From a virus (taxonomy: Duplodnaviria > Caudoviricetes): 64,000 nt of DNA. The DNA is taken from the IMG/VR virus record IMGVR_UViG_3300046167_000724; one strand, given 5' to 3'. Each line of letters begins with the position of its first letter. Within the stretch, counting starts at the first letter, position 1. The notes below the pieces were generated by a model that was not told the DNA's origin, did not search any database, and worked only from the letters and a program-made list of their open reading frames with translations. The position numbers and the translations under genes are program-made. Shown here piece by piece: positions 1,725-37,534 of the stretch.

Positions 1725-4064
1725 ATGAAAAAGATTGAATCATTTAAAAGTTTTTCTCAATTACAAAATCAAATCAGAGAAGAGGCTAGATTAAAAGAAG
1801 TTGCATCTAAAAGAGACGCTACAGTTTCTGAGTTTAACGCTCTTTTACAAAAGTACAATGCGGCATCAGTTGCAGACTTAAACGAAGAAGATAGAGACGC
1901 ATTCATGGCTGAACTTACCAAAGAAGGTAATGCTTTCGGTGCAGCAAGAGCAGAGGCTATTGCAAAGGGTGAAGAAGAGTTTAAGGTTGGCGACGAAGAA
2001 ATGCCGGTTAAGAATGTAGATAAAGAAGACGAAGAAAACGCTGAAGAGTTTGTTAAAGAGTCAACTACAATTATTGAAGAAGGTACTAGAGGTCAATTCG
2101 GTAAAATCTATAAGAATGGCGAAATCGCTTCTGTATACACACACTATGATTCTTATCCTGAGAACATGATTCCACTTATTAAGAAGGGTTATAAAAAAGG
2201 CACTGATGTTGATGCAGTTCTTGGTAAAGGTGGTAATTCAGGTCTAGAAGTTTCTCCAGATAAAATGAAGTTTTATGGCGATGCGGATAGCATGACTCCA
2301 ATGAAAGGTAACATTAAAAATCTTAATAAGTATATTAAAGATGCTGACCGTAATGGTGGTGCAGAGTATATCTACTTATTTGACGAAAGAGATCAAAATT
2401 GGTACATGATTGACATATATGGTGATAAAGAATTAGTACCGGCATTTGAATCAGTAGTTACTGAAGGCAAGCACGACGAGATGCTAGATAAAGTTGCAGA
2501 TGCTGTAAAAAATGCATCAAACTTTATGAACGTTGGTATTGCACTTAAAGATGCAGGTATCAAGTACGATTTTTCAACAGGTATGATGCCAATCTATAGG
2601 TTGAAAAAATACCCTATTGCTATTGTAAATAAAAAGTATGTTGACGATGCAGATAGAGAAGTAGGTGACATTGCAATTGGTGTAATGGAATCACTTACTG
2701 AATCGCTAATCACTGAAGCACTAGAAGGTAGAAGCCAGAAAGAAGCGATGAAAGGTTATGCTGCAATTCATAAGTTTATGATGGCACACCCTGGATTTGC
2801 TAGCAAAACAGTTTCAGACCAAACAGTTGCTTGGACAATGAAAGAAGCTCTTAAGGCTGCACTTATAGACGCAAACTTCCATACAGAAGCTAAGTCAGTT
2901 GGTAAAGCTATTAACTTTGCAAACTTTCAAGCACCAACTGTTTTTGTAAACGAACTGGGCGGTATGCCAATCCAAATCAGTAAAAAAATGATGATGGATA
3001 AAGTATATGAGCTAGCTACAGAAATTACAAGAGGTGCAAAATATAATGGTTTTGCTATTATTGAAGCTGTTGCAATGTTCTTTGATGATTCATTCCCTAA
3101 GAATTCTTCTGCATCAAATCTAAGAGATGTACTTGCTAAATTTATGGGTGAAGCTGTAGAAGCTAATAATCTAGAGCAAAGAATTAATGAAGGTTCAGCG
3201 TTTAATTCGGCAAGACTAAAAGCTATTGCTGACGATAAAGATGAATTTGAATTTGATGGTAAAACTTATCCAGTAAAATCTGTTGATAAGGAAGATGAAG
3301 AACTTGCTGATGATTTAGTAGGTGAAGGTAATGCATTTAGCACTGCTAGGTTAAAGGCTATTGAAGCTGGTGAAAAGGAGTTTGAATTTGATGGTAAGAC
3401 TTATCCAGTAAAGTCAGTTGACAAAGAAGATGAAGAACTTGCTGATGATTTAGTAGGTGAAAGTAACAAAACCATAGATGCTAGCACATTTGGCGATGAC
3501 AAATTACGTTATGATGATCAATTTAGAGGTGCTACTGGTCTTGCTAAAACATTAGCAAGCGAATTAGGATTTGATCCAAAAAAGCCTTGGACTGAAGGTA
3601 TTGGTTTTGATGATATTGAAATGTATGCTATCGGTAAAAAAGAAGGAACTATTTCAAGAAACGCACTATCAGGTAAATATACGTATGCTGATCTTTTAGC
3701 AATGGCTAAAGATTTTTTAGGAATCAATGAATCAGAAGATAAAGAAGCTGCTGATGATGTAGTCGATGAGTCTAGATACGATGATATAAAACTTAAAGAA
3801 TTTGCAGAATTTATCAAAAAAGCTGAAGGTAAAAGAGTTATGCTAACAACAACTGAATTTGATGGTACATCTAAGGTTGAGGGTAGGCTTCAAAAAAGTT
3901 CATCAGGTTATCATAAAATTGATTACATGAGCTTTGATTTTAAAGATGAAATGGATACTATCAAAAAGGGTGACGGCATGATTATGGGTGTTAGGGTTGG
4001 CGAATTCCTTAAGTACAATATCGGTGGTAAAAACGGTTCTCAATTTTTAATTGAAGTACTATAA
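1725..4064 (+). CDS. Modular putative internal head protein (polyprotein-like, many I/L/V-x-E sites, three EGNAF...VDKEDEE repeats)
   Basis: Late motif upstream; N-terminal IESFKSF; acidic linkers IIEE/G, VVTE/G, LITE/A, RINE/G, GINE/S separating distinct domains. Confidence 0.6.
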   Translation: MKKIESFKSFSQLQNQIREEARLKEVASKRDATVSEFNALLQKYNAASVADLNEEDRDAFMAELTKEGNAFGAARAEAIAKGEEEFKVGDEEMPVKNVDKEDEENAEEFVKESTTIIEEGTRGQFGKIYKNGEIASVYTHYDSYPENMIPLIKKGYKKGTDVDAVLGKGGNSGLEVSPDKMKFYGDADSMTPMKGNIKNLNKYIKDADRNGGAEYIYLFDERDQNWYMIDIYGDKELVPAFESVVTEGKHDEMLDKVADAVKNASNFMNVGIALKDAGIKYDFSTGMMPIYRLKKYPIAIVNKKYVDDADREVGDIAIGVMESLTESLITEALEGRSQKEAMKGYAAIHKFMMAHPGFASKTVSDQTVAWTMKEALKAALIDANFHTEAKSVGKAINFANFQAPTVFVNELGGMPIQISKKMMMDKVYELATEITRGAKYNGFAIIEAVAMFFDDSFPKNSSASNLRDVLAKFMGEAVEANNLEQRINEGSAFNSARLKAIADDKDEFEFDGKTYPVKSVDKEDEELADDLVGEGNAFSTARLKAIEAGEKEFEFDGKTYPVKSVDKEDEELADDLVGESNKTIDASTFGDDKLRYDDQFRGATGLAKTLASELGFDPKKPWTEGIGFDDIEMYAIGKKEGTISRNALSGKYTYADLLAMAKDFLGINESEDKEAADDVVDESRYDDIKLKEFAEFIKKAEGKRVMLTTTEFDGTSKVEGRLQKSSSGYHKIDYMSFDFKDEMDTIKKGDGMIMGVRVGEFLKYNIGGKNGSQFLIEVL
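3189..3458 (+). repeat. Tandem 135-bp (45 aa) duplication; third diverged copy near 1923-2057
   Basis: EGSAFNSARLKAI...DLVG followed by EGNAFSTARLKAI...DLVG. Confidence 0.9.
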
Positions 4065-4126: not shown

Positions 4127-4432
4127 ATGAAAAGGGTAAAACTATTCGAAAGCTTTATTAACGAGGCAGGAATCTTTAGAACTTACAATGAGCTTGTTGG
4201 TTATGAATACAAGAAGTTTGTAGATGCTTTTAAGAAGCTCCACCCTGATAATATAGTTACATATGATAAAAAGAATGATGTTGATTATGGTCACCGTAAA
4301 GGCTCCACAGAAGCACTTTGGAAATACTTTCATGATGAAGGTAGAATTCACCACTCTGAAAAAGACAGAGACGTACTTGGTCTAATCAATGCATTTGACA
4401 TGGTTAAAAGAAACCACCCTTGGTCAAAATAA
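4127..4432 (+). CDS. Putative internal head protein (N-terminal MKRVKLFESFINE)
   Basis: ATG at 4127 preferred over 4112; capsid-targeting-like N-terminus. Confidence 0.6.
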   Translation: MKRVKLFESFINEAGIFRTYNELVGYEYKKFVDAFKKLHPDNIVTYDKKNDVDYGHRKGSTEALWKYFHDEGRIHHSEKDRDVLGLINAFDMVKRNHPWSK

Positions 4433-4453
4433 AACAAACATTCAAATGAAAAA
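4402..4453 (+). repeat. 52-bp direct repeat (1 mismatch), copy 2 at 4747-4798
   Basis: GGTTAAAAGAAACCACCCTTGGTCAAAATAAAACAAACATT identical for 41 bp in both copies. Confidence 0.95.
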
Positions 4454-4721
4454 TATAAAATTATTTAACGAGTTTGCTGAACCAACAACTGACGAGTCTA
4501 TTATAAATTCACAAATTGAAGAGAAAAAAGCAGACGGTACAATCTCTGACGATGAGGATGAGAGAAGAGCTGAATTACTTAAAAGAGTAAAAGAGCAAAT
4601 GGAAGAACTTTTAGCTTCAGCAGAATTCGATGCTAACGATATTGGCGGTTCTTTTAGAGCACCTGGTATTATGGCTAAAATCAGAAAAGAACTAGAAGGT
4701 CAAATTAAAAAGTTTAGATAA
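4446..4721 (+). CDS. Putative internal head protein (MKNIKLFNEFAE)
   Basis: ATG at 4446 inside ORF 4389-4721; capsid-targeting-like N-terminus. Confidence 0.6.
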   Translation: MKNIKLFNEFAEPTTDESIINSQIEEKKADGTISDDEDERRAELLKRVKEQMEELLASAEFDANDIGGSFRAPGIMAKIRKELEGQIKKFR

Positions 4722-4790: not shown

Positions 4791-5429
4791 ATGAAAAAAG
4801 TAAGATTATACGAAAGCTTCCACGGTATTGATGAAGCTTCAAGAGGTACAATTCACAAAGCAGTAAAAGCTGGTGATTATCCCGTAACTATTGTTGTTAT
4901 TGAAAACGGTAAAGTAGTACACCAAGAAATTGTAGATACACCACAAGCTGTACCCGCATCATTTAACGTTCTTCAGAAAGAATACCCAAAAGCAAAGCTT
5001 CATGTTGAGGACAAAGGCGGTCAAACACTTTTTGTAGAAGGTATTGAATCAGCAATTACAGAGTTTGTAAATGAATCAGACGTAATGAACTCGTATTATT
5101 TTACTAGTCCTAGTGAATTTGGTCAATTTTCATCAGAGGCCCCGGCTAAAGGTGAAACTAAATATTTAGTAATGGCTAATAATAAAGCAGACTTTAATGG
5201 TCAAACTATTAAATTAGAAGGTGGTATTAGAATGGGATCTGCGACTAGCCAAAAGGTTATAGGTGTTTATGGTGATGAGCAGTCTGCAAAAGACGCCTAT
5301 GAAGCTGCAATGAAAAAACCAGAAGGAACTATGGTTTCTTTCACAATGGGAACAGTTGTTGGCGAAACTAAATTTAGATCTCAATATACTGAAATCGAAG
5401 GGTATTTAGCAAAAGTTAAATTAAAATAA
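4791..5429 (+). CDS. Putative two-module internal head protein (MKKVRLYESF; IDE/A, ITE/FVNE/S linkers)
   Basis: Capsid-targeting-like N-terminus and internal x-x-E linker. Confidence 0.55.
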   Translation: MKKVRLYESFHGIDEASRGTIHKAVKAGDYPVTIVVIENGKVVHQEIVDTPQAVPASFNVLQKEYPKAKLHVEDKGGQTLFVEGIESAITEFVNESDVMNSYYFTSPSEFGQFSSEAPAKGETKYLVMANNKADFNGQTIKLEGGIRMGSATSQKVIGVYGDEQSAKDAYEAAMKKPEGTMVSFTMGTVVGETKFRSQYTEIEGYLAKVKLK

Positions 5430-5430
5430 T

Positions 5431-6723
5431 ATGAACAAGCTACTTATTTCTTTTAACGAGTTTCTTTTAGAGAAGGCTTATAACTCTTATGATTCAGATC
5501 TAATCCTTGAAGGTGGTGCAGCTGGTCACATGATGCACCCGTTCGATGATAAAGCACTAACGTTTGATGACTTTAGAAAGTTTATCACAGCGGGTCTCCA
5601 AGGTGAAATGACTTTTGATGAAGAGCCAACAGAAAAGACTGACGGCCAAAACGTGTTTGCCACGGTTAAAGATGGTAAAGTAATGTTTGCTAGAAACAAG
5701 GGTCAAATGCAAAACCCTATTGACCTAGCAGGTATTACTCAAATGTTTGCCGACCATCCATCTGAGTTGGTTAGAGACACATTTACATTCGCAGCTCAAG
5801 ACTTAGCGTCAACACTTACAAAGCTGTCAGCTAATGACCAAATTAAGTACTTTAACGACGGTAAGAACTTCATGAACATGGAGCTTATCTATTCAAAAAA
5901 CCCTAACGTTATTAATTACGACAGAGATGTTATTCAATTCCACGGTATCAAAGAGACTGATGGTGAAGGTAATATTATTGGTGATATGGGTGCAAGATCG
6001 GCTAAAGATATTGCTAAGCTACTTGATGCTGTAAATGCAAAAACAGGTAAAGTGTTCAACATTATTCCACCTCAAGTACTTAAGCTTCGTAAAGATGTAG
6101 ACTTTGATGACAGGTTGCCGTACTTTATGAAAAAGATTGATGCGCTTCAAACACAATATAAATTAGCCGGTCATGATGAGGTTTCAAGATACCATGAAAT
6201 GTGGTGGAGAGACGAGATTGAAAAGTCTTTTGGTGACCTATCACAAGATATTAAAGAAGGCTTATTATTAAGATGGGCATATGACGATAAGAAAACTCTT
6301 AACATGAGACAGGTTGCTAAGCAGATTACACCAGAACAAATGGAGTTTCTTAGAAAATACGACAAGGTAGACGTTAAGAAAAAGTACAAAGAAAACATTA
6401 GACCGTTCGAAGACTTGTTCTTAGAGTTTGGTTCAATTGTACTTAAGAACGCTTCGAACTTTGTTGCAGCGTCACCAGATGCCGAAATGCAAAGACTACA
6501 TAATGAAATTAGAACAGAAGCCGCTAAGATTAAAAAAGGTGGTTCAGTAGACCAGATTATTAAGGTTGAAGCTGAGCTGGCAAGGTTAGATAGAATTGGT
6601 GGTATTGAGTCAATTATTCCAACTGAAGGCTTAGTGTTCAAATATAATGGTAAAATATATAAGTTAACGGGTACTTTTGCAGCGATTAATCAGCTGTTAG
6701 GTATTATTAAATACGGTAGATAA
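5431..6723 (+). CDS. RNA-ligase-like covalent nucleotidyltransferase-superfamily protein
   Basis: Motif I TEKTDGQ (K69), candidate III E151, IIIa F170, IV EGLVF (E399), V YKL (K411); long insert between IIIa and IV. Confidence 0.55.
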   Translation: MNKLLISFNEFLLEKAYNSYDSDLILEGGAAGHMMHPFDDKALTFDDFRKFITAGLQGEMTFDEEPTEKTDGQNVFATVKDGKVMFARNKGQMQNPIDLAGITQMFADHPSELVRDTFTFAAQDLASTLTKLSANDQIKYFNDGKNFMNMELIYSKNPNVINYDRDVIQFHGIKETDGEGNIIGDMGARSAKDIAKLLDAVNAKTGKVFNIIPPQVLKLRKDVDFDDRLPYFMKKIDALQTQYKLAGHDEVSRYHEMWWRDEIEKSFGDLSQDIKEGLLLRWAYDDKKTLNMRQVAKQITPEQMEFLRKYDKVDVKKKYKENIRPFEDLFLEFGSIVLKNASNFVAASPDAEMQRLHNEIRTEAAKIKKGGSVDQIIKVEAELARLDRIGGIESIIPTEGLVFKYNGKIYKLTGTFAAINQLLGIIKYGR

Positions 6724-6729
6724 ACTAAT

Positions 6730-8568
6730 ATGGCACTTCAAAAGCTAAGAGATTATTTTAAAGAAACACCAAGAGAACAGTTTATGCAACTATTAAACCA
6801 AAAGGTTCATGTTGTAGAAAAACTAGCGGCTTCAGCATTTCATGTAAAGTCTGGTGATTTAAAAAATAATTATTATAAATCAGGACAAACTCAACCTATT
6901 GATATTATTGATAGAACGATTGTAGGTTTTTACGAACCTGCAATTTTGCATTTTAAAGGTTTGTCTAATGAAATTAAAGAAGAGATGCCAAAAGATTGGA
7001 AGTTTGGTTTTGATTATTTAATTGATGGTGAAACACCTAACTTTGAATATTCGCTACTTCCAAAAAACAATTTAGTACTTACACATATTCAAGTGCTAAA
7101 TCCACTAACAGAAAATGTTAAGAAAGTCATTAGAGATACTCAAGTACTTAATAAGTGGGCTGATAAACTAGAGGTTCAAAGACCCCCAGTTGTATTTGAA
7201 GGTCAATTAAGATTTGATCAGAAAGAATCTTTAATTAAACTTCTTGAAATGACAGACCGTGAATTTACAACAACATATGAGTCTCGTTCATTTACAAAAG
7301 ATTTATTTAACATATTTGATACAAACGTTAGAAACTCAACACTTCAAGAAGGTTTAGATACCGATATTGACGGTCTTATAATTTCTTTTGTAGATGGTAA
7401 AAAAATGACGCCATTTAAAATTGAAGATTTTAGAAGAGTTAATGAATCAAATACAGAAAGAAAGTCATCCGATATTTACCAGATTACAATTGTTGATTTA
7501 ATTGAGTATTTATCAAATTATGATTTTAAAAAGCATAGTTTAATTAAAGAGAAAAAAGACCGTAGATTTTTAGAGCTTATGTCTGAAGTATTTAATTCTT
7601 ATATTAAAGAACACGCTACTAAATTTATTGGGGTTAACTTTGAAACCGCTGATTTTGCAAAAAAAGATGCGTTTAAGTTAAACACTGAATTTATTGAAAA
7701 TCAACAAACTCTTAAACTTATCGATAATAAAATTTTAAGTGAACTTTTTAAAATTACATTAAGCTCATTTAGAAGAGAAAGAACAAAAACTACAGATATT
7801 TTGTCTGAAGATATGGTTAATCAAATGAATGAGATTGTTAAATCTATTGACGACCACGTATCTGCAAAAATAGAAGAAGGTGATGTGTTAGATTTTAATA
7901 CTTATAAAAAGATGGATACAATTAATTCATCAATGAATGAAGCCCTTAAAGTAGATTATCCAGAACAAGGCAATAAACTTGTTAATATGTTTGTTGGTAG
8001 ATTCCAACCATTTACATTAGGTCATGCTAAAGTTGTTAAAGCAATTCACCAACAAAACGGTTATCCAGTTGTAATCTTATTAGTTAAGTCTAAGACGAAA
8101 AAGAAAGAAGATGCTTTCAAACGTCCTTATGATGAAGACACTCAATTAGATATGCTTAACAAACTTAAGAGAGAACTTCCAATTGAAGACGTATTTATTA
8201 TACCGACGGGTGGTATTGATACAATGTTTAATGCAATGAGACCCAAGTACGAGCCGGTTTTATGGGGTACGGGTTCTGATAGAATGAAAACATATGGCTT
8301 CCAGGTTAATAATGATCAATATAGAGAAGACTTAGGAGTTAGAGATGATTTTAAACTTTTTGAAATTCCAAGAACTGGTAAAAACATTTCAGCTACTCAA
8401 GTTAGGAATGCTATGTTAGACGGTGACGTGAAGCTATTTAAAAAATTAACGCCAAGGGGTATTCATGGAATGTATGACGAATTAAAGTCAAGACTTGAAG
8501 CTTCTATGGCAGTTGCTGAGAATGTTGAAACTATTTTAACATTTGAACAATTTATTTCTAATATATAA
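6730..8568 (+). CDS. Degenerate ligase-like domain fused to HIGH-superfamily nucleotidyltransferase (cytidylyltransferase/NMNAT-like)
   Basis: N-terminal VVEKLAAS and IDGLII; C-terminal GRFQPFTLGH and ISATQVR. Confidence 0.65.
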   Translation: MALQKLRDYFKETPREQFMQLLNQKVHVVEKLAASAFHVKSGDLKNNYYKSGQTQPIDIIDRTIVGFYEPAILHFKGLSNEIKEEMPKDWKFGFDYLIDGETPNFEYSLLPKNNLVLTHIQVLNPLTENVKKVIRDTQVLNKWADKLEVQRPPVVFEGQLRFDQKESLIKLLEMTDREFTTTYESRSFTKDLFNIFDTNVRNSTLQEGLDTDIDGLIISFVDGKKMTPFKIEDFRRVNESNTERKSSDIYQITIVDLIEYLSNYDFKKHSLIKEKKDRRFLELMSEVFNSYIKEHATKFIGVNFETADFAKKDAFKLNTEFIENQQTLKLIDNKILSELFKITLSSFRRERTKTTDILSEDMVNQMNEIVKSIDDHVSAKIEEGDVLDFNTYKKMDTINSSMNEALKVDYPEQGNKLVNMFVGRFQPFTLGHAKVVKAIHQQNGYPVVILLVKSKTKKKEDAFKRPYDEDTQLDMLNKLKRELPIEDVFIIPTGGIDTMFNAMRPKYEPVLWGTGSDRMKTYGFQVNNDQYREDLGVRDDFKLFEIPRTGKNISATQVRNAMLDGDVKLFKKLTPRGIHGMYDELKSRLEASMAVAENVETILTFEQFISNI

Positions 8569-8588: not shown

Positions 8589-11114
8589 ATGTTTGAATCT
8601 TTTAACAATTTTATAAATAACAGCATGCCTTTAAACGAAGGTATGTTTTCATTTAAAACTTTAGGTGATAATAAAGCAATTAGCGCAATGTCAGGTGCTG
8701 ATATTTACATGTTTGACGATAAAGGAAACAAATGGCATGAAGAAGACTATGAAGGTTACGGCCTCTTTGGTGGTAAAGACTTTTTTGAGTTAATGGCTGA
8801 AATGAATGGTGAAACAGGTAGAGATGCAGGTATTGACCTTTATTTCGGTAATGATAAAAAAGTTTTGTACCCGGCATTAACAAGAGACAAAAATTTTAAC
8901 TGGAAAAGACACAAGTTTACTACTAAAATAAAGTCAGACCCTAAGCAAGGTGCTTTCTCTGAATCAGTGATTAATGAGGCTAAATCAATCGCTAAGATTC
9001 AAAAAGAATGGGCTAAAGTTACAGCTATGATGAAAGATACAGTCGCATCATATAAAGAAGCTGAAGGTAAAGACAAAGAAGATTTATTAGACCAGCTTAA
9101 AGTTTTAACAATTTCTAAAAAGAAACTTGAGGTTGAATTAGATGATGCAGTCGGTATTAAAGACATGGACGTTGAACTAGCAGAATCTTCAGTTATTACA
9201 GAGTCACTTAAACCACGTGATATTAAAGTGGGTAGAGGATTTAAAATCGGCGATGACATTTTTAAAATTATTGAAATTAAAAAAGACAAACGTTTTGGTG
9301 ATATCGCAAATACAGAACGTATTGACCATATATCCGGTAAAAAATACACTTATAGAGATACGGTTAAAGACCTTGTAGATTTCTTTAATGAGGAGGGTGC
9401 GGTTGCAGAAGGTATGGAATTTACTATTACTGATGTAATTAATGAGTCATTAAACAAAAGACACGTTACACTAAAAAGAAAATATACTGAAAATTATCCA
9501 GCGATTACTGCAGGTAAATCAGCAAGAATCAGAAATAAAATGCTTGAGGCGATTGCTGACGGTAAAATTACACAAGAAGAATTCGACACTATCTTAAAAG
9601 AAATGTCAATAGATACTAAGAGATGGTCAAAAAGAAATACAAAATATTTTAACGTATCAGAAGACGGTGTGTCACTTTCTAAGTTTGGTAGAAGAATCCT
9701 TAATCAAATTACAATTAATGAAGCAGAGTCTATGATTAATGAAAAAAGAGAGAACTGGATTGTTTATACGGGCGAAGTTCAAAAGAAATTTTATTCAGAA
9801 CACACAGGTAGAAAGTCTGCTGAAAAAATGGTAAATATGGCTATGAGAGTTTTGAATCAAGTAGGTATGATGCCAAAAAGTTTGTGGGAAAAAGAAGAAG
9901 AAGAAGGTTTTGTTGTAGAAGACACTGTATTCATATATGAATCATTTAAAGTTTTTGAAGCTAATAGTGTTAACGAATCAGCGTTTGTAGTATGGTATGA
10001 AGATAAAGAGGGCAAGCACATTTTAGGCACGTTCCATAATAAGAGAGCTGCTGACAAGTACAAGAAAGAAGAAGAAGACGAGGTGCTTAACACTGTAGGT
10101 GTTGAAAGCATTGGTACTATGTCTAGGAAGATGTGGGATAAAAACGAAGCACCTTACATCAAAGAGTCAATTGACCTTAACGAAGCATTTGCTTCTTCTA
10201 AGCTGAGAAACCTTTTAACAATGAGAGGTGCTGATGGTAGCGCTATTAAAAATTTAGCTAGAGCTTTTTACGGTTTAACTAAATACAAATTAGACGAACT
10301 GCCAGATGCTGCATTAAGAGATGTTGACCCTAAAACAGCATACAAGTCGTATCAAAAAGATAATGAATTTGCGGTATTCTATATTGTAGATAATGAAAAA
10401 GGAAACCCATATGGTGATAGAGGCTGGGGTCGTAAAATTGAACCAGGTATTATCGCAATCACAAGAGGTAAAGAATTCTTAGGTGCAACACACGATACTA
10501 AAAAAACACCTTCAACACTTACGACAGCTGCATTAGACAGCGCTGTTGGTGGTGATAAAAGATATTCAGGTTACGGTGCTACAGGCATTTACAATGTAAA
10601 GAGAGCTGCTGAGCTTGCAGATAGAGCTATCGTTGTATGGCTAAATAACGACGCATTCAAATCAACTGATAAGATTGAGCAAAGAGCAGACGCTAAAGCA
10701 GGTGCAATCGCGTTCACGTCAGATAAAGAATTTAAGGCAACTAACATGGCTAGATATAAAGAAATTTTAGCATCAAACGCAGCAAAGCTTCCACTAGACA
10801 AAATAGTTGAATCAGCTATCGAAGAGCTAACTAAGCAAATTGCACAAGCACTTAAAGACAATAACGCCAGCAAATATGATGGTATCCTTATCGGCACGAG
10901 CCCTAGAGGTCGTGAAGTAACTATTAAGGATGCTGGTCAGCACATGTCAAATATCCTTGACGATTACTCAAGATATTCATCTTACATGAAAAATTCAGAT
11001 GAAGAAAGAGCTAGCGGTTACTCTTCAGGTTTCTACGAAAAAGAAGCAAAGAATTACGCTAAGAGAGTAACTGACGGAGCTAAGAAAATTAAAAAGATGG
11101 ATTACGCTTGGTAA
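8589..11114 (+). CDS. Modular putative internal head polyprotein (about 7 domains separated by I/L/V-N/T-E sites)
   Basis: MFESFNNF start; PLNE/G, VINE/A, VITE/S, VINE/S, MINE/K, SVNE/S, DLNE/A linkers. Confidence 0.6.
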   Translation: MFESFNNFINNSMPLNEGMFSFKTLGDNKAISAMSGADIYMFDDKGNKWHEEDYEGYGLFGGKDFFELMAEMNGETGRDAGIDLYFGNDKKVLYPALTRDKNFNWKRHKFTTKIKSDPKQGAFSESVINEAKSIAKIQKEWAKVTAMMKDTVASYKEAEGKDKEDLLDQLKVLTISKKKLEVELDDAVGIKDMDVELAESSVITESLKPRDIKVGRGFKIGDDIFKIIEIKKDKRFGDIANTERIDHISGKKYTYRDTVKDLVDFFNEEGAVAEGMEFTITDVINESLNKRHVTLKRKYTENYPAITAGKSARIRNKMLEAIADGKITQEEFDTILKEMSIDTKRWSKRNTKYFNVSEDGVSLSKFGRRILNQITINEAESMINEKRENWIVYTGEVQKKFYSEHTGRKSAEKMVNMAMRVLNQVGMMPKSLWEKEEEEGFVVEDTVFIYESFKVFEANSVNESAFVVWYEDKEGKHILGTFHNKRAADKYKKEEEDEVLNTVGVESIGTMSRKMWDKNEAPYIKESIDLNEAFASSKLRNLLTMRGADGSAIKNLARAFYGLTKYKLDELPDAALRDVDPKTAYKSYQKDNEFAVFYIVDNEKGNPYGDRGWGRKIEPGIIAITRGKEFLGATHDTKKTPSTLTTAALDSAVGGDKRYSGYGATGIYNVKRAAELADRAIVVWLNNDAFKSTDKIEQRADAKAGAIAFTSDKEFKATNMARYKEILASNAAKLPLDKIVESAIEELTKQIAQALKDNNASKYDGILIGTSPRGREVTIKDAGQHMSNILDDYSRYSSYMKNSDEERASGYSSGFYEKEAKNYAKRVTDGAKKIKKMDYAW

Positions 11115-11126
11115 TCAAATTTAATT

Positions 11127-11813
11127 ATGCCATCACAAAGTAAATCACAACAAAGACTAATGGGAGTAGCATACGCAGTTAAATCTGGTGATATGCAACT
11201 TTCTGATGTAGATGCTTCTTATAAAGATAAGGTTAAAGAGCTTGTTGATAGCATGTCTCTTAAAGACCTTAAAGACTTTGCTGAGACGGATCACAGTGGT
11301 TTACCAGAAGAAGTAACTGAGGGTGTTATGAAAATTGACTTACGTAAAATTTTAACTAGGCTTTCAGGCGCTATTGGCTATAAGCATGACCCTAAGATGC
11401 GTCAAGAATTATTATCAGCATTTGAAGAAGACCTTAAAGAAATTATGGCTAAACACAATTATATTGTTGAATATGAAACAATCGAAGAAGATTTATCAGC
11501 TACTACACCAGGTAATCTCGGTGGTATGGGTGATGTTTCTCTACCCAATGGAGATGCCGTCGGTTCAGGCGATGTCCCAGCAGGTTCTGGTAAAGCTAAA
11601 AAGAAAAAGAAGCTTAAAAACATTGAAGATTTTTTACAAGAACAAGAACAATTAAAATCATTTAAACCTGAACAGGGTAAAGGTGAAGCACTTGGTGAAG
11701 GTGAATATGAAAACGGTTCTGCAGTTTCTCCAGAACAAGAAATGGAACAACGTGCTAACGCACATAGAGTTGCAAAAAATGTAATAACATTTGACGCATT
11801 TTCAAAAAGATAA
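11127..11813 (+). CDS. Protein with DUF3008-like N-terminal domain, acidic linkers and C-terminal ITFDAF motif
   Basis: MPSQSKSQQRLMGVAYAVKSG...SMSLKDLKDFAET resembles the MPAKSKAQQ-type DUF3008 domain. Confidence 0.5.
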   Translation: MPSQSKSQQRLMGVAYAVKSGDMQLSDVDASYKDKVKELVDSMSLKDLKDFAETDHSGLPEEVTEGVMKIDLRKILTRLSGAIGYKHDPKMRQELLSAFEEDLKEIMAKHNYIVEYETIEEDLSATTPGNLGGMGDVSLPNGDAVGSGDVPAGSGKAKKKKKLKNIEDFLQEQEQLKSFKPEQGKGEALGEGEYENGSAVSPEQEMEQRANAHRVAKNVITFDAFSKR

Positions 11814-29067: not shown

Positions 29068-29832
29068 ATGAATCTTTCACCAGTTAAAATTATTAACGAA
29101 AACGAAATTGAATTTTACCTACATGGTAAATCATTCACTGTAAACACTACTGAAAATACTGTAGTTGAAAACGAAACTATTTCAAAAGAACTTCACACAT
29201 TAGCATGGGCTGTTGAAAACTTCCAGTTCATTGAAGATAAAATTGTATGGCATAAAGGTATACACAAAATGTGGTACAATATTACTGAAGCGAAATTCTA
29301 TATGGGTAATACTGAAGTTTTAGATGAAGGTTTTGTTAACTTCATTATGGCTGCTGGTATTATTAGATACAATGAAAAGCCAGTTGCTGAAGCATTTGTA
29401 TATGCTGCAAATAATGCTGAATCATTTGTTAATTTAGACTTTGTTAAAACAGTTAATGAAAATGGTAACCTAATTGATGTTATGAAGTTTGGCGAAAACA
29501 TTTATATTTCTAGAATTAATGAAGCTGCTAAAATCTATAATTTCTTTAAGGCAAACACTGCAAATGCTGCAGTTGAGTATGTTAATGAAAAGACTAATGT
29601 AAACATCACTGAATTTGTTGCTGAATTAGTTGAAGGCGAATTAACTGAATATGTTGATGCACTTGATGAAATTGCAAAGAAGCAAGAAATCATTACATTC
29701 TTAAAAGATCAAAGAAACAGATTAGCTGAAGCTGATAAATCAATTGAAGAAATCAATGCAGCAGACGCACTTATTGAAAGTGAGATTGCTAAATTTGAAA
29801 CTGAAATTAAAGAATTAAAAGCTACGCTATAA
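29068..29832 (+). CDS. Late hypothetical protein with C-terminal coiled coil
   Basis: ORF under late motif. Confidence 0.7.
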   Translation: MNLSPVKIINENEIEFYLHGKSFTVNTTENTVVENETISKELHTLAWAVENFQFIEDKIVWHKGIHKMWYNITEAKFYMGNTEVLDEGFVNFIMAAGIIRYNEKPVAEAFVYAANNAESFVNLDFVKTVNENGNLIDVMKFGENIYISRINEAAKIYNFFKANTANAAVEYVNEKTNVNITEFVAELVEGELTEYVDALDEIAKKQEIITFLKDQRNRLAEADKSIEEINAADALIESEIAKFETEIKELKATL

Positions 29833-30089
29833 TGCAATCTAAATTTATTAAAACATTTGAGCAATTTGTAATAAACGAAGAAGAAATCTCAAGATCAACT
29901 GGTTATGTACCGGGTTCTTTGAAAAAAGAATTTGAAAATTTACCAGCGGGTACTAAAGTATCTATTGACGCTTTGAATTATTCTCAATCTGCAAACGATG
30001 ACCTTGTTATTTGTTTTACCGACTCTAACGAAAATATGTTAAGAGTCCCTAAATCAAAACTAGTGCTGGAGGACGGCGAAGGCATTTAA
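29832..30089 (+). CDS. Putative internal head protein (KTFEQFVINE)
   Basis: Capsid-targeting-like N-terminus. Confidence 0.55.
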   Translation: MQSKFIKTFEQFVINEEEISRSTGYVPGSLKKEFENLPAGTKVSIDALNYSQSANDDLVICFTDSNENMLRVPKSKLVLEDGEGI

Positions 30090-31711: not shown

Positions 31712-33313
31712 ATGGCAGGTTTTGTAAATCCAAAAAATGGACCTCTTTCTTACGGTAAGAGACCATTTACTTTAAGTACGGCTCTTAAGAGTCTTTCGTC
31801 GTTTGGAATGTACTATGATGACATGGTACTTCGCCAATCACAGGCAATTGGCCCAGTAGAAGATGCATTAGGCTACGGTCAAATGAACATGATGGGTGTT
31901 GACAATGACGATATGTACAGTGCATTCGCATCGCTGTCAATGGCTGATACTAATATGCGTAAATCAATCCCTCTTTTTGATAGGGATTACGAATCTAAGA
32001 GAGAAGAGCTTAGAAAATTTTCGCTAAATGATGAGATTGAAGATATACTTGATATCCTTTGTGATGAAACAATGGTATATGACGAAAAGAATTTCTTTTG
32101 TTATCCAGATATTATTGGCTTAGATGTATCTGATGAGGTTGATGCTTATTTTAAAAGGTCGTTCAGACAGATTTATCAATACTTCGGATTTAACGGTGAC
32201 CAATCAGCTTGGTACTTTTTTAGAAAGTTCCTGATTGACGGTTATTTGTCTTTTGAAATTATTTATAACGAAGAGCAAACTGAAATTATTGGGTTTAAAG
32301 AGATTGACCCTATTACTTTAATGCCAGGTTTTAATAATGATGATGGTAAAAAGGTATGGATTCAGTTTAAGGATAATCCAATGAAGGAAAGAGTACTTTA
32401 TGATTCACAAATCATTTATATCTCTTATTCTTCTATTACAACAGTATCTAGAGTTTCTTATGTTGAGCGTTTGATTAGAGCGTTTAACTTGATGAGAATT
32501 ATGGAACACACTCGTGTAATTTGGGCAGTTACTAATGCTTCATTTAGAATGAAGTTTGTTATCCCAATGGGTGGTAAGTCTAAGACAAGGGCTAAACAGT
32601 CTCTTGCACAGTTAATGAACAACTATAAAGAGGTTGTAGACTTTGATTGGGAATCAGGTACATTAGAGACTGATGGTAAACCAATGCTACAATTCTCAAG
32701 AGAATACTGGTTACCTTCTAAAGAGGGTGAAACTCCAGAAATCGAAACGCTTGGTGGTGACGGACCTGACCTTTCAGATACAGAAGCACTTAAGTACTTT
32801 GCAGATAAATTAAAGCATGTTTCTAAAATTCCTTATAATAGATTCATGTATGAAGATGGTGGTGGTGATTTTAATCTAGCCGCTGATGGTATGATTAGAG
32901 ATGAAATTAAGTTTTCTAAGTTTATTAGAAGACTTCGTTCAGCATTCCAAGAGGTATTGGTTAAGCCAATGTACTTACAAATGTGTTTAAAATATCCTGA
33001 GTTTGCTAATGACCCACAATTTAGAACTCAAATTGCATTAAGATTCAACGAGGAGAATATGTTCGCTGAACTTAAGAACATGGAAATCATGGAAAGAAGA
33101 CTAGACTTTATTGGACAAATGAGAGATAACTTAATGGTTACCGACCCAATGACAATGGAAGAAGACCACTTCTTTGATATGGACTTCTTAGTTGACAAGT
33201 ATCTAAAACTATCACCAGACGATAAAGAGGCAAATGCTGCATATAAGGCAAGGTCAACTGAATCTGAGGCCGGTGAAGAGCCAGAAGACCCAATGGGTGC
33301 AATGGGCATGTAA
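31712..33313 (+). CDS. gp20: Portal protein
   Basis: FLIDGYLSF, IWAVTNA, EYWLP, EIETLGG, YF..KL...SKIP, RDEIKFSKFI. Confidence 0.93.
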   Translation: MAGFVNPKNGPLSYGKRPFTLSTALKSLSSFGMYYDDMVLRQSQAIGPVEDALGYGQMNMMGVDNDDMYSAFASLSMADTNMRKSIPLFDRDYESKREELRKFSLNDEIEDILDILCDETMVYDEKNFFCYPDIIGLDVSDEVDAYFKRSFRQIYQYFGFNGDQSAWYFFRKFLIDGYLSFEIIYNEEQTEIIGFKEIDPITLMPGFNNDDGKKVWIQFKDNPMKERVLYDSQIIYISYSSITTVSRVSYVERLIRAFNLMRIMEHTRVIWAVTNASFRMKFVIPMGGKSKTRAKQSLAQLMNNYKEVVDFDWESGTLETDGKPMLQFSREYWLPSKEGETPEIETLGGDGPDLSDTEALKYFADKLKHVSKIPYNRFMYEDGGGDFNLAADGMIRDEIKFSKFIRRLRSAFQEVLVKPMYLQMCLKYPEFANDPQFRTQIALRFNEENMFAELKNMEIMERRLDFIGQMRDNLMVTDPMTMEEDHFFDMDFLVDKYLKLSPDDKEANAAYKARSTESEAGEEPEDPMGAMGM

Positions 33314-33329
33314 AAAAATTAAAACTAAA

Positions 33330-33662
33330 ATGATTATAAAAACATTTGAACAGTTTATAGCTATTAAAGAAGATGCTATTAATGCAGGACCAGAGTCTGA
33401 GGTTGTAATTGATGATATGATTACAACTAATGGTACTGAAATTTCTGCAGAAGAAATCTTAGGTATTGTTGTATCTTCAGATAACGAAAAACAGGTTGAA
33501 ACTAAAATTCGTGAAAAGTATGGTGAGCTAGCATTTTCTACAGAAGACATATCTATTATTAAAAAATACTGGAATGACTATTCAGCTGAAAACAAAGAAA
33601 AAGAGTTAGAGGCTGAAAAAGAAGCAGAGGGCGGTGAAGAAGACCCAATGGCGGGTATTTAA
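33330..33662 (+). CDS. Small acidic prohead core-like protein (MIIKTFEQF)
   Basis: Position between portal and protease like T4 gp67/68; ATG 33330 inside track ORF 33234. Confidence 0.55.
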   Translation: MIIKTFEQFIAIKEDAINAGPESEVVIDDMITTNGTEISAEEILGIVVSSDNEKQVETKIREKYGELAFSTEDISIIKKYWNDYSAENKEKELEAEKEAEGGEEDPMAGI

Positions 33663-33725: not shown

Positions 33726-35924
33726 ATGAATTATAATAATCTATTAATACTTGAAAGATCATCAAGTACTCTAATCGCTGACGAAAAGTCTGGCAATTAT
33801 GTACTAGAGGGTATCTTCGGTGAGATCGATAAGAAAAACAAAAACAATCGTATCTATACTGAAGGTGAATATGTACCTCAAATTGAAGCTCTTCAAGAAA
33901 AAATTAAGTCATCAAAACTTCTAGGTGAATTAGATCACCCTGCTAAGTTTGATGTATCATTAAAGAATGTATCGCACATTATCGAAGAATTATATTACGA
34001 TAGCGATCTTAAACAAGTTAAGGGTAAAATCAGATTACTAGATACAGATGCTGGCCGTCAGGCTAAAGCACTTGTAGATGCTGGTGTACCTTTACAAATA
34101 TCTTCTAGAGCTGCTGGTGAAGTTAGTGAGGGTGGTCAAGTTAAAATTAAACAATTATTCACTTATGATTTAGTTGCTGACCCGGGTTTCGCGAATGCTG
34201 AGCTTAATAGAGTTAACGAATCTTTTGGATTCGAGTCAGACAGTAACATTCAAATCTTTGAGATGATGCCTGAAACTCTGGTTACAGAAACTGAAAATAT
34301 CAAAACTGAAAATAATACAAATAATACAACATCAATCATGGAAAATCAAGCTAGATTTGTAAGTGTTGAAGACTTTAACAAGTACTCTACGTACTTAGCT
34401 GAAGAAATCAAAGCACTTAAAGAATCTCTTGCAGGTACTTCTACTGAAGATATTGAAGAGAAAATGGAAGCGCTTACAAATTATGTAGAGCACGTTGCTG
34501 AAAAAGCAGACCAGGGCATTCAATACACTGAGTACATTGCAGAGAACCTAGATAAGTCAATCGACTATTCTAACTATGTTGCTGAAAAATTAGATAATTC
34601 TATTTCTTATTCAGAGCACGTTGCAGAAGCTGCGTCAAACGTTAAGGAATACGCCAATTATTTAGCAGAAGCAATGAACGAAGGTGCTGCTGATTACGAA
34701 AACGTAACAAAGTACTTAAACTATTTAAAAGAAAATGTAGAGTCTGTATCTGAGTATGCTGACTACATTGCTGAAACAATCAACACTAACCTAATTGTTG
34801 AAACTGAAGTTGCAAACGACGGTGACGATGTTACGGGCACTGAAGCTGACGACCTTAAGTCTGATGCTAAAGAAGTAAACAATGATGTTAATGCACCTGA
34901 AGACAAGTCTGCAGAATTAGAAGCTGACTTAGCTAAAGATGCGGCGCCATCTAAAGTGGTTGTTGAAGCTGATATTAAAGCAAACGACGGTGACGATGTT
35001 ACGGGTGTTGAAGCAGATGACCTTAAGTCTGATGCTAAAGAGATTAACAATGATGTTAATGCACCTGAAGACAAGTCTGCAGAATTAGAAGCTGACTTAG
35101 CTAAAGATGCTGCACCATCTAAAGAAGTAGTTGAATCTGAAGAAGCTGAAGAAGAAGTTGCTGAAGAAGTTGCTGAAGAAGAAACTGAAGAAGTAGTTGA
35201 ATCTGAAGAAGCTGAAGAAGCTGAAGAAGAAGTTGCTGAAGAAGAAACTGAAGAAGTAGTTGAATCTGAAGAAGCTGAAGAAGAAGTTGCTGAAGAAGAA
35301 ACTGAAGAAGAAGTTGAAGAAGAAGCAGTTGAAGAATCATGTGATGCATGTGGCGCAAACCCATGTGAGTGTGCTTCTGAATCGGTTGATGCTGTAGAAG
35401 CATACAAAAACGAAATTTCTGAAAAGCTTTCTGCTTTAATTAACAAAGCAACTGTTAAAGAAAATAATAACCCACACTTCTTCAAACTAGTATCTGAAGC
35501 AACTCAAGAAAAGTATAACGCTTTAGAAGAAGCTGACAAGTCTAAAGTACTTGCAACAGTTGAAGGTAGAGGTTACTTAACTGAAGGCCAAATTAATACT
35601 TTAATGGAATCTGCTTTAGTAGAGGTTGCTGGTCAAACTGCACCTTATTTTGTTGAAGCAATGCCATCTGAGTACAAAGAGACTTGGTCTAAACTATCAG
35701 AGGCTAAGAAATCAGTGATTTCTGCTCAAGCTAGAATGGTTAAGCTAACGACACCATACCAAGTTAAAAACTTCTGGGACACAAGAGACCTAAGAGAAAC
35801 ATCAGCGGTAATGGAAAGAGTTGAAATGATTACTGAAGCTAAGAAAATCGAAGCTCCTAAATCAACGCTAACGTATAACACTGATGGTATTGGTGAGGCT
35901 TTAGCAAAAAGATTTAAAAAATAA
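33726..35924 (+). CDS. gp21: Prohead protease (gp21-like) fused to scaffold/core (gp22-like)
   Basis: NKNNRIY, GELDHP, ISSRAAG, YDLVADPG in first ~170 aa; long acidic helical remainder. Confidence 0.85.
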   Translation: MNYNNLLILERSSSTLIADEKSGNYVLEGIFGEIDKKNKNNRIYTEGEYVPQIEALQEKIKSSKLLGELDHPAKFDVSLKNVSHIIEELYYDSDLKQVKGKIRLLDTDAGRQAKALVDAGVPLQISSRAAGEVSEGGQVKIKQLFTYDLVADPGFANAELNRVNESFGFESDSNIQIFEMMPETLVTETENIKTENNTNNTTSIMENQARFVSVEDFNKYSTYLAEEIKALKESLAGTSTEDIEEKMEALTNYVEHVAEKADQGIQYTEYIAENLDKSIDYSNYVAEKLDNSISYSEHVAEAASNVKEYANYLAEAMNEGAADYENVTKYLNYLKENVESVSEYADYIAETINTNLIVETEVANDGDDVTGTEADDLKSDAKEVNNDVNAPEDKSAELEADLAKDAAPSKVVVEADIKANDGDDVTGVEADDLKSDAKEINNDVNAPEDKSAELEADLAKDAAPSKEVVESEEAEEEVAEEVAEEETEEVVESEEAEEAEEEVAEEETEEVVESEEAEEEVAEEETEEEVEEEAVEESCDACGANPCECASESVDAVEAYKNEISEKLSALINKATVKENNNPHFFKLVSEATQEKYNALEEADKSKVLATVEGRGYLTEGQINTLMESALVEVAGQTAPYFVEAMPSEYKETWSKLSEAKKSVISAQARMVKLTTPYQVKNFWDTRDLRETSAVMERVEMITEAKKIEAPKSTLTYNTDGIGEALAKRFKK
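34812..35335 (+). repeat. 168-bp tandem duplication followed by Glu-rich repeats in scaffold domain
   Basis: ANDGDDVTG...KDAAPSK twice; ESEEAEEEVAEE(E) units. Confidence 0.9.
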
Positions 35925-36067: not shown

Positions 36068-37534
36068 ATGGCAAATTTAATCAACGAATCTGAAATCAGA
36101 GCAACGTGGTCACCGATCATCGAGTCTGCTACTGGTATCAACGATTCAAACAAACTAGCTTGGATGTCAGAATACTGTCACAATCACAAGCTTTATGAAG
36201 AAGCAAACTTATCTGCAATACAGCCGATGATGCTTAAAGGTATGGGTAACGTATCTCTACCTGGTGACCACATGGTTGGCCACCCAGGTCCAGACTCAGT
36301 AGGTTCAGGTGATAAAGCACCAACTCTACTTCCCCTAGCAATGCAAGTTGCTGCACAAACTGTAGGTCTTGATCTAGTACCTGTAGTACCAATGGCTGGC
36401 CCAATGGGATTACTTTCTTACTTAGATTTCGTATATGATGGTGGTGCTGCAAGAAACGCTGCAGGTGCTAAAAACGTATACTACGTTAAAGTTACAGATA
36501 CAGATCACACTGCACTAGAGACAGCTGCGACATTAGGTGTTATTGCTGCAGATCCAGCATTACACGCAGGTTATGAGTACGTAGGTGTATCAAGAATTGA
36601 TGGCCTAAACATCTGGAAATCAACTTCTGATTTAGTTGCTGCTAATCTAGCACTAGATATCGCTCTAGCTGCCTCTGCTACTGCAACTGTAGGTTTAGAC
36701 CTAGAATTAGTTAAAGCACTAGAAGACCACATTCCTGGTTTCGTTGCTGCTGACGTAGACGGTACTCCTTTCACAAGAGGTGCTGGTGAGCAGACTCCAG
36801 AAAACATCATGGGTCTATCTTTATTCAGCAAATCAGTTGCTGCGGAAACTTTCCAAGTAGCTGCTGCTGTAACAAGAGAGCAAGTTCAAGATCTTAAGCA
36901 ATTCGGCGTTGACGCTGTTGCTCAAGTTGAATCAGTTTTAACTAACGAACTAACTCAGTCTATCAACAGACTAATCCTTAACAAGATGAACGGTATCGCG
37001 CAATCTGGTTTAGGTGCTGCTGCAATTGATTTATCTGCTACAGGTTCTATCTATGGTGGTGAGACAAGAGGTGAAGCACACAGAAGAGTTCTAACGAACA
37101 TCCTAGCTGCTGCTAACCTTATCGCTAACGAAGGTAGAAGAGGTGCTGGTAACTTCGCAGTTGTTGACTGGAAACTAGCTTCAGCTCTACAAGCTATCGC
37201 AGGTTTCGTACCAAATCCAATGGCTAACACGTTCTCGCAAGTTGCGGGTGCTATTTACCCATTAGGTGCAATGGCAGGTATCAACATTTATGTTGATCCA
37301 AACCAATCTCCAACTTCTGCAGGTGTACATTCTGTACTAGTAGGTAGAAAAGGTGACGGTAACGGTTCAGGTCTAGTATTCATGCCATACCTAATGGCTG
37401 AATCAGTTCAGACTATTGCTGAAGGTACTATGGCTCCAAAAATCGCAGTTAAGTCTAGATTCGCTCTAGTTGAAGCTGGATTCCACCCAGAGTTAAACTA
37501 CCAGAAATTCACTGTAACAGGTGTTGAACTATAA
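36068..37534 (+). CDS. gp23: Major capsid protein
   Basis: W.PIIE N-terminus, GLDLVPVVPM, SVAAET, EQVQDLK, ELTQSIN, GRRGAGNF, MPY, KSRF. Confidence 0.93.
   Translation: MANLINESEIRATWSPIIESATGINDSNKLAWMSEYCHNHKLYEEANLSAIQPMMLKGMGNVSLPGDHMVGHPGPDSVGSGDKAPTLLPLAMQVAAQTVGLDLVPVVPMAGPMGLLSYLDFVYDGGAARNAAGAKNVYYVKVTDTDHTALETAATLGVIAADPALHAGYEYVGVSRIDGLNIWKSTSDLVAANLALDIALAASATATVGLDLELVKALEDHIPGFVAADVDGTPFTRGAGEQTPENIMGLSLFSKSVAAETFQVAAAVTREQVQDLKQFGVDAVAQVESVLTNELTQSINRLILNKMNGIAQSGLGAAAIDLSATGSIYGGETRGEAHRRVLTNILAAANLIANEGRRGAGNFAVVDWKLASALQAIAGFVPNPMANTFSQVAGAIYPLGAMAGINIYVDPNQSPTSAGVHSVLVGRKGDGNGSGLVFMPYLMAESVQTIAEGTMAPKIAVKSRFALVEAGFHPELNYQKFTVTGVEL

Follow-up and report, generated by a model that had tools for sequence, protein, structure and literature searches.

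The 64,000-nucleotide stretch of DNA analyzed in this work (the window from here on; IMG/VR virus record IMGVR_UViG_3300046167_000724) comes from an uncultured marine T4-like phage with a G+C content of about 34%. At 8589..11114 (+) it carries an uninterrupted open reading frame (ORF) of 841 residues, whose 95-kDa precursor product is termed P0001. This product is probably a polyprotein targeted to the capsid, from which cleavage in the prohead releases six proteins of 8-13 kDa and one of 34 kDa that accompany the DNA. The evidence comes from the motif that separates its modules, the exchange of these modules among relatives, and the resemblance of leaders and motif to sequences handled by the head maturation protease of T4-like phages.

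Cut-type sites in P0001 and its relatives

Eight glutamates of P0001 (E17, E130, E205, E286, E378, E385, E463 and E532) close copies of the motif [ILVM][NT]E, in the contexts PLNE/G, SVINE/A, SVITE/S, DVINE/S, ITINE/AESMINE/K, SVNE/S and IDLNE/A, where the slash marks the predicted cut. This number compares with 1.73 +/- 1.27 expected from 5000 composition-preserving shuffles, one of which reached eight. All the sites fall within residues 1-532, where none of the 5000 shuffles attained eight, and the last 309 residues hold no [ILVM][NT]E motif. Counted as [ILV]NE, the density is 8.3 per 1000 residues in P0001 versus a window average of 1.9. The eight junctions are written with differing synonymous codons, which indicates that the constraint acts on the peptide and not on the DNA, and rules out a DNA-level recombination site as the source of the motif.

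Among 5.8 billion proteins searched, 257 relatives have a length similar to that of P0001 and another 58 are shorter; junction statistics were obtained from 156 distinct junctions preceding six module types. E occupies P1 in 98% of them; N predominates at P2 (68%), ahead of T (16%) and S (5%); P3 holds V, L or I in 93%; and the residues at P1' are mainly A (77%), with some G (10%) and S (5%). The pattern [ILVMA]-x-E is found in 154 of the 156 junctions, and the remaining two are one-residue offsets of the assigned boundary. E and S are enriched upstream, giving a consensus near E-S-V-V-N-E, then A.

These figures bear on the possibility that P0001 is an uncleaved multidomain protein, whether or not it belongs to the virion, in which E-S-V-x-N-E-A linkers have been kept for capping, spacing or binding and the likeness to protease and targeting sequences is coincidental. 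Multidomain proteins often have short acidic linkers, a loose L/I-x-E rule is satisfied by many sequences, and the gene is distant from the head module. Ordinary linkers, however, are not 98% Glu followed by 92% small residues over 156 junctions of unrelated domains. The same motif also ends leaders of the family and is conserved in the protease-scaffold protein of the phage, and modules switch genes regardless of their neighbors, as expected of parts that function separately. An uncleaved protein thus strikes us as rather improbable.

Modular structure of P0001

The AlphaFold model of residues 1-545, computed from a curated alignment of 72 rows (A4), has domain cores with a predicted local distance difference test score (pLDDT) of 85-96 and a predicted template modeling score (pTM) of 0.28. 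Stretches with pLDDT below 50 are 1-21, 115-130, 192-203, 277-307, 378-385, 447-462 and 525-545. They contain six of the eight predicted cut positions, and the other two (E205 and E463) are at most two residues away. With a pTM of just 0.28, no fixed arrangement between domains is predicted. Together with profile-profile comparison by hhalign, the model gives seven modules of six unrelated types.

Module S1 (8640..8978 (+), residues 18-130) is a mixed alpha/beta module of 12.9 kDa with an isoelectric point (pI) of 5.4 and a core pLDDT of 66-84, ending in V-I-N-E130, then A. It is followed by S2 (8979..9203 (+), residues 131-205; 8.3 kDa, pI 4.9; end V-I-T-E205, then S), a two-helix hairpin (helices 134-157 and 161-196, pLDDT 94-96) whose structural matches in VIA-align are generic helical hairpins only, with Z of about 9. 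S3 (9204..9446 (+), residues 206-286; 9.3 kDa, pI 5.4; end V-I-N-E286, then S) is predicted with pLDDT 94-96 as a small beta-barrel (strands in 217-258) plus a helix, and Foldseek found a weak similarity to the domain I barrels of EF-P/eIF5A (52-56 columns, root mean square deviation 3.4, E 0.03-0.07). The helical, winged-helix-like S4 (9447..9722 (+), residues 287-378; 10.7 kDa, pI 10.0; end T-I-N-E378, then A) shows weak similarity to MarR-type winged helices in VIA-align (Z 8.4-8.6), together with a weak EF-hand-like loop and sub-threshold EF-hand-like PDB profile matches. Behind it, a heptapeptide spacer (9723..9743 (+), residues 379-385) is delimited by the double site E378/E385, with pLDDT below 50 over 378-385; double sites occur in leaders of relatives too.

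Both S5 (9744..9977 (+), residues 386-463; 9.2 kDa, pI 5.2, pLDDT 91-93; end S-V-N-E463, then S) and S6 (9978..10184 (+), residues 464-532; 8.0 kDa, pI 5.2, pLDDT 92-94; end D-L-N-E532, then A) have a beta-beta-alpha-beta-alpha arrangement. The last module, S7 (10185..11114 (+), residues 533-841 and the stop codon; 34.2 kDa, pI 9.3), consists of an alpha/beta domain and then a helical bundle, and was modeled separately from an alignment of 91 sequences (A1), with pLDDT 84.6 and pTM 0.52. In that alignment Ser, Lys and Asp residues are invariant. S7 sequences hold 181 [ILVM]-x-E motifs versus 285 in shuffles, which is weak evidence as the sequences are not independent.

None of the seven segments gave a Pfam or PHROG family above threshold, even at E <= 1, nor did the whole protein at E <= 0.01. 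PDB profile searches with S7, S4 and S5/S6 gave nothing significant, and an ESM Atlas feature search with S7 and S1 gave no usable match. Comparison of both models with PDB, BFVD and ESM Atlas (Foldseek) and with 48,161 chains (VIA-align) returned generic hairpins and bundles in addition to the weak S3 and S4 matches, with no informative fold match for S7.

Exchange of modules among relatives

Across about 300 relatives, the seven segments behave as independent modules. BLAST of the segments against 120 relatives gave matches with identical boundaries in varied order and content. S2 precedes S1 in P0003 and P0006, the order is S3-S2-S4-S5-S1 in P0017, S4-S5-S4-S3 in P0018 and S6-S4-S7 in P0066, and in close relatives extra modules are inserted between those of P0001 type. 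Homologues of S1 with the exact 18-130 boundaries are present in nine colinear relatives; the module stands at other positions of the chain in P0003, P0006, P0017 and P0059, and forms a stand-alone protein in P0176, a complete 143-amino-acid gene within an array of small ORFs. About 30 proteins contain S2, at varying positions that include the one right behind the leader (P0156), and the position of S3 varies as well. S6 stands right behind the leader in P0149, P0151 and P0157 and ahead of S4 in P0066 and P0070, and the leader leads directly into S6, S2 or S4 in some relatives. The best-conserved small module is S4, with 57-97% identity in essentially all relatives; it is fused to cytidylyltransferase domains in P0166-P0175, and a core of S4 and S7 is found in 86 of the 120 relatives.

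The position of S7 is constantly C-terminal. When 1.84 billion representative proteins were searched with a profile, 308 S7 clusters at 50% identity were obtained, and since many of the proteins in them have 320-360 residues, corresponding to a leader of 20-30 residues and S7, the arrangement of a single domain behind a single leader is widespread. Leader and S7 alone also make up a complete 328-amino-acid gene. Judging from these sequences, long trains look like expansions between the leader and S7, with leader plus S7 as the ancestral form. When the 120 proteins were split at the motif, 643 segments of at least 35 residues formed 76 clusters, and the P0001 modules fell in seven different ones. 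Homology breakpoints, counted in a filtered set of high-identity alignments that end abruptly, lie within six residues of the motif in 65-70% of cases, versus 12% for random positions.

A previous sequence-only reading of this DNA had described the ORF as a string of about seven unrelated small domains on cleavable linkers, and every site that it listed is found in the P0001 sequence. Two of the outcomes that it had named as speaking against a polyprotein could be examined with sequences and models. One was a continuous fold across the sites, and the model shows confident cores separated by linkers of pLDDT below 50 near all eight sites, at a pTM of 0.28. The other was that homologues would always be full-length and colinear; instead, modules change their order, are gained or lost, move to other genes or stand alone. 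Its picture of compact modules of differing character with a terminal domain of about 300 residues holds in the model (S7 has 309), and the stand-alone genes that it thought possible exist in the case of S1 and of leader plus S7. The word "unrelated" needs amending: it stands for all other pairs, with an hhalign probability below 1%, but S5 and S6 are distant paralogues (75%, E 2.4e-5).

Leaders and the head maturation protease

The leader of P0001 (8589..8639 (+), residues 1-17) shows an aromatic pattern (F2, F5, F8, I9), lies within the stretch of pLDDT below 50 over 1-21, and ends in L-N-E17, then G. In T4, the capsid-targeting sequence is M-K-T-Y-Q-E-F-I-A-E (bioRxiv 10.1101/2021.01.19.427310), where residues 4 and 7 serve for targeting and 8 and 10 for processing (PMC9026906). 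Leaders in relatives of P0001 include M-K-N-L-R-T-F-E-S-F-I-N-E before S6, M-F-E-S-F-E-D-F-V-N-E before S2 and M-K-H-I-K-L-F-E-Q-F-I-N-E before S7, and the general form M-K-x-x-x-x-F-E-x-F-I-N-E is also found before S4. Their spacing equals that of T4, with aromatic residues at P7 and P4, an aliphatic residue at P3 and Glu at P1, and such leaders combine the targeting aromatics with the processing residues of T4-type leaders of 10-19 residues. The canonical pattern occurs within the first 22 residues of 62 of the 176 family members, most of the others having a leader that ends in [ILVM][NTS]E. Among stand-alone S7 proteins, 34 of 37 have a cut-type site immediately ahead of the start of S7.

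Leaders of a similar kind were also noticed in other ORFs of the window. A strict regular expression for targeting-like leaders picked out three window ORFs only, and leaders were judged by eye instead; those starting at 29832, 33234 (internal start), 4389 (internal start), 4791, 5431 and 37651 were noted. N-termini close to the T4 targeting sequence are K-T-F-E-Q-F-V-I-N-E in 29832..30089 (+), K-T-F-E-Q-F-I-A in 33234..33662 (+, internal start) and K-L-F-N-E-F-A-E in 4389..4721 (+, internal start).

The ORF at 33726..35924 (+) encodes a gp21/S77-type prohead protease with a scaffold-like C-terminal region of about 565 residues (Pfam PF03420, E 9.6e-13; PHROG 207), in which alignment to T4 gp21 (PDB 5JBL) locates the catalytic His (G-E-L-D-H-P) and Ser (S-S-R). 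T4 gp21 cuts after the Glu of L/I-x-E (PMC9026906); it removes targeting leaders of 10-19 residues from internal proteins and makes multiple cuts in core proteins (PMC9026906; PMC5694885). By its residues, the junction motif of P0001 is this T4 prohead-protease motif. In 55 distinct protease-scaffold homologues, taken from 80 related loci, [ILVM][NTS]E is found after residues 165 (52/55), 343 (49/55), 620 (52/55), 659 (43/55) and 704 (37/55), and the conserved site after residue 165 is directly behind the protease domain. A homologous protease, gp245 of SPN3US, is reported to undergo C-terminal autocleavage (PMC5694885). The organization of the window protein suggests that a single chain comprising protease and scaffold is synthesized and processes itself. 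Since the motif is conserved in the protease-scaffold fusion, the P0001-type motif marks the most certain substrate of the enzyme. Three elements of the sequence-only reading find support here: the N-terminal targeting tag, whose spacing resembles that of the T4 sequence, the gp21-type protease at 33726, which retains both catalytic residues, and the rule of cutting after I/L-x-E, which agrees with the literature (PMC9026906).

The gp23-type capsid protein (36068..37534 (+)), whose nearest database relatives, with 49% identity at most, belong to uncultured huge phages, begins with M-A-N-L-[IL]-N-E, then A or S, and this N-terminus is conserved in about 70 related loci. In some capsid loci an in-frame upstream start adds 12 residues.

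The polyprotein could be cut by something other than the head protease, either through self-cleavage by S7 or by a Glu-specific host protease in the cytoplasm. The constant C-terminal location of S7 and its invariant Ser, Lys and Asp would fit self-cleavage, and polyvalent proteins often carry their own peptidase (PMC5512222). The same linkers are nevertheless present where S7 is missing, in P0017, P0018, the S4-cytidylyltransferase fusions and the window ORFs 1725 and 4791; S7 has no peptidase match in Pfam, PDB or fold searches, and the motif agrees with the specificity of the phage's own protease family. We give very little credence to this explanation.

Proposed processing and alternative roles

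Packaging, cleavage, ejection and effector function of the P0001 pieces are what we infer from these observations. The N-terminal leader would act like the T4 targeting sequence, binding the 95-kDa precursor into the scaffolding core during prohead assembly, and the activated gp21-type protease (33726..35924) would then cut after the Glu of [V/I/L]-[N/T]-E, then A/G/S, at eight linkers. In T4, an Asp in place of this Glu blocks processing. Expected products are the 2-kDa leader, the heptapeptide, six proteins of 12.9, 8.3, 9.3, 10.7, 9.2 and 8.0 kDa, and the basic C-terminal protein of 34.2 kDa. The folded pieces, too large for leaving the shell, would remain with the DNA, the basic S4 (pI 10.0) and S7 (pI 9.3) perhaps bound to it; they would enter the host along with the genome and act early, like T4 Ip1-3. 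Once injected, Ip1, Ip2 and Ip3 inhibit restriction enzymes of the GmrSD type (PMC12373910), and by analogy an anti-defense role of the variable acidic modules would be a reasonable guess.

If every junction is a cut site, each module is independent of its neighbors, and insertion, deletion and swapping between trains become possible. At least 76 module types are found in the 120 proteins. The chances seem to us evenly balanced that a large clade of marine T4-like phages has plug-and-play cargo of this sort, in which one leader is followed by any number of protease-bounded domains, freely swapped inside and among several genes of this kind at one locus, as a combinatorial, fast-evolving arsenal delivered ahead of phage gene expression.

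Cleavage in the prohead could also produce pieces devoted to assembly or DNA condensation, as scaffold accessories or histone-like proteins, rather than host effectors. The basic S4 and S7 form the conserved core of the family, occurring in nearly all relatives with synteny kept, and S4 is weakly winged-helix-like; moreover, head assembly is defective in T4 IPIII mutants, and the internal proteins of T4 are DNA-binding at low salt (PMC9026906). The other five modules, however, are acidic (pI 4.9-5.4), variable in presence and order, and common to other genes, a variability that is the pattern of accessory arms-race cargo such as the T-even internal proteins (PMC3012670, PMC12373910). Folded pieces of 8-34 kDa also differ from the 2.5-3.9 kDa fragments of T4 gp22 and gp67 (PMC9026906). 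On balance, a purely structural role of the pieces appears unlikely.

Several observations weigh against the proposal of a capsid-targeted, prohead-processed polyprotein carrying effectors. The leader of P0001 itself is non-canonical, with Asn where Glu would be expected after F-I-N and the first usable site (residues 15-17) six residues later, and many relatives that start with S4 have leaders without the aromatic pattern. A conserved M-L-E-A within S4 satisfies the loose L/I-x-E rule; either it is shielded by the fold or the enzyme requires N, T or S at P2. The L-I-N-E of the capsid protein is L-I-N-S in one subclade, and given this and the otherwise wholly conserved N-terminus, the capsid site is not decisive for calibrating the specificity of the protease. 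No module has a recognizable function in Pfam, PHROGs, PDB profile or fold searches, so that the label "effectors" is a guess. P0001 had no tblastn match among 50,697 phage records, so that no cultured relative was found. Finally, some 22 kb separate the gene from the portal, protease and capsid genes downstream, and around it are genes of nucleotide metabolism and replication. The ip and alt genes of T4 likewise lie outside the head cluster.

Neighboring genes and a shared pool of modules

Around P0001, related loci keep a syntenic order of a ligase-like gene, the cytidylyltransferase fusion, the P0001 gene, a DUF3008 protein, a dUTPase and DNA polymerase B. The head genes of the window include a gp20-type portal at 31712..33313 (Pfam/PHROG annotation). 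The T4 late-promoter consensus TATAAATA is not enriched in the window (9 found versus 10 expected) and gives no information on timing.

The junction motif is also carried by the neighbor genes, and modules of the ORFs at 1725, 4791, 6730 and 11127 are found inside P0001-family proteins of other phages. Because modules move between chains, their function should be independent of the chain, as expected if chains are cut. The ORF at 1725..4064 (+), of 779 amino acids, begins in a targeting-like manner and holds seven [ILV][NT]E sites, one of them in F-E-S-V-V-T-E, then G; its residues 104-248 are, with up to 86% identity, a common module between S4 and S7 in most P0001 relatives. By sequence it is likely a second train. 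In the 212-amino-acid product of 4791..5429 (+), the leader ends in I-D-E, then A, and the two halves occur in other trains (residues 1-88 in P0158, P0020 and P0086; residues 82-212 in P0177 and P0178). Downstream of P0001, the ORF at 11127..11813 (+), of 228 amino acids, contains DUF3008 (PF11450, residues 4-62), which ends in E-E-V-T-E, then G. The DUF3008 module is also found within the S7-family protein P0222, and the syntenic proteins of related contigs have 515-526 amino acids; DUF3008 seems to be one of the cargo modules.

Two neighbors have features of enzymes. The ORF at 6730..8568 (+), of 612 amino acids, has a cytidylyltransferase-like domain (residues 400-590) that in P0166-P0175 stands behind the leader and S4, and that at 5431..6723 (+), of 430 amino acids, combines a K-x-D-G motif of ligase type with a leader that ends in L-L-E. 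These enzymes may be part of the same capsid cargo.

Elsewhere in the window, the ORF directly after the capsid gene (37651..39177 (+)) has five cut-type sites in total, among them L-N-E (5-7) and I-N-E (16-18), and its relatives begin with clear capsid-targeting-like leaders; its product is probably a core or internal head protein. The highest motif density in the window corresponds to 29068..29832 (+), where 254 amino acids hold seven [ILV][NT]E motifs, four of them [ILV]NE.

Implications and comparison with known systems

Should this explanation of P0001 be correct, tailed phages would load several independent proteins into their capsids by means of polyproteins whose processing is coupled to maturation, under a single address tag, and cut-site junctions would account for the diversification of cargo by module swapping. 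About 76 or more families of small unannotated domains would become candidate injected proteins of abundant uncultured marine phages, and these candidates may be anti-defense or takeover factors. A targeting-like leader plus [VIL]-[NT]-E-[AGS] junctions would provide a rule to search metagenomes for cargo, and the layout a template for multi-cargo loading of T4-based delivery vectors.

The closest likeness is with the internal proteins of T4. These also have a short leader with the same aromatic spacing and an aliphatic-x-Glu site for a gp21-type protease; their content is hypervariable between related phages, as in the P0001 family; and the sizes of IPI, IPII and IPIII (about 8, 10 and 20 kDa; PMC9026906) can be set beside the 8-34 kDa of the predicted P0001 products. 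The leader plus S7 form, of 320-360 amino acids, has the exact layout of a T4 internal protein. The difference is that in T4 each gene gives a single product behind a single leader, whereas in the P0001 family one leader precedes up to seven or more modules, with a cut site at each junction. Layout is all that is common, P0001 having no similarity to any described T4 internal-protein family in Pfam or PHROGs.

Substrates of other prohead proteases (T4 gp22, gp67 and gp68, and those of phiKZ gp175 and SPN3US gp245) share with P0001 the protease family, a three-residue motif cut after Glu, and more than one site per substrate, with redundant double sites among them (PMC9026906; PMC5694885). In these phages, as described in the same sources, the extra sites serve to cut up and discard propeptides or scaffold, leaving one mature product. 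The sites in P0001 separate domains that fold and evolve independently, so several mature products would be expected. T4 gp22, gp67 and gp68 are moreover encoded in the head cluster and give peptides of about 2.5-4 kDa that mostly leave the head, whereas the P0001 gene lies outside that cluster and its predicted pieces are folded domains of 8-34 kDa.

Polyvalent proteins (PMC5512222) are similar in combining many unrelated domains, in their mosaicism and in their predicted packaging in the capsid and delivery with the DNA, and the P0001 family shows the two to fifteen distinct domains in mosaic architecture that characterize them. They are, however, defined by recognizable enzymatic domains, and their release is ascribed to an embedded peptidase of zincin-like or other type; Pfam, PHROGs, PDB profile and fold searches revealed no conflict-related enzymatic domain and no embedded peptidase in P0001. 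In contrast to polyvalent proteins, the P0001 modules are very small, and every junction carries the motif of a separate head-maturation protease. An analogy between polyvalent proteins and the polyproteins of RNA viruses was drawn by Iyer, Burroughs, Anand, de Souza and Aravind themselves (2017; PMC5512222). The sequence-only reading had considered a polyprotein strategy to be little described for tailed phages, which has to be narrowed given that analogy and the known cases of multi-site processing, but is maintained for the trains. In a literature search of incomplete coverage, we found no description of trains of internal-protein-like modules split by prohead-protease sites.

Polyproteins of positive-strand RNA viruses and retroviruses resemble P0001 in having one ORF, a viral protease, a short junction motif and, as in retroviral Gag, processing coupled to maturation, and the conserved protease motif at every junction that defines them has its counterpart in the 154 of 156 junctions described above. 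Their proteases and genomes are unrelated to those of the phage, and in their case the polyprotein is forced by the translation strategy. The polyprotein form of P0001 seems rather to let accessory cargo share one targeting signal and be loaded in equimolar amounts, and, unlike in the RNA viruses, the modules of the P0001 family are exchanged between polyproteins.

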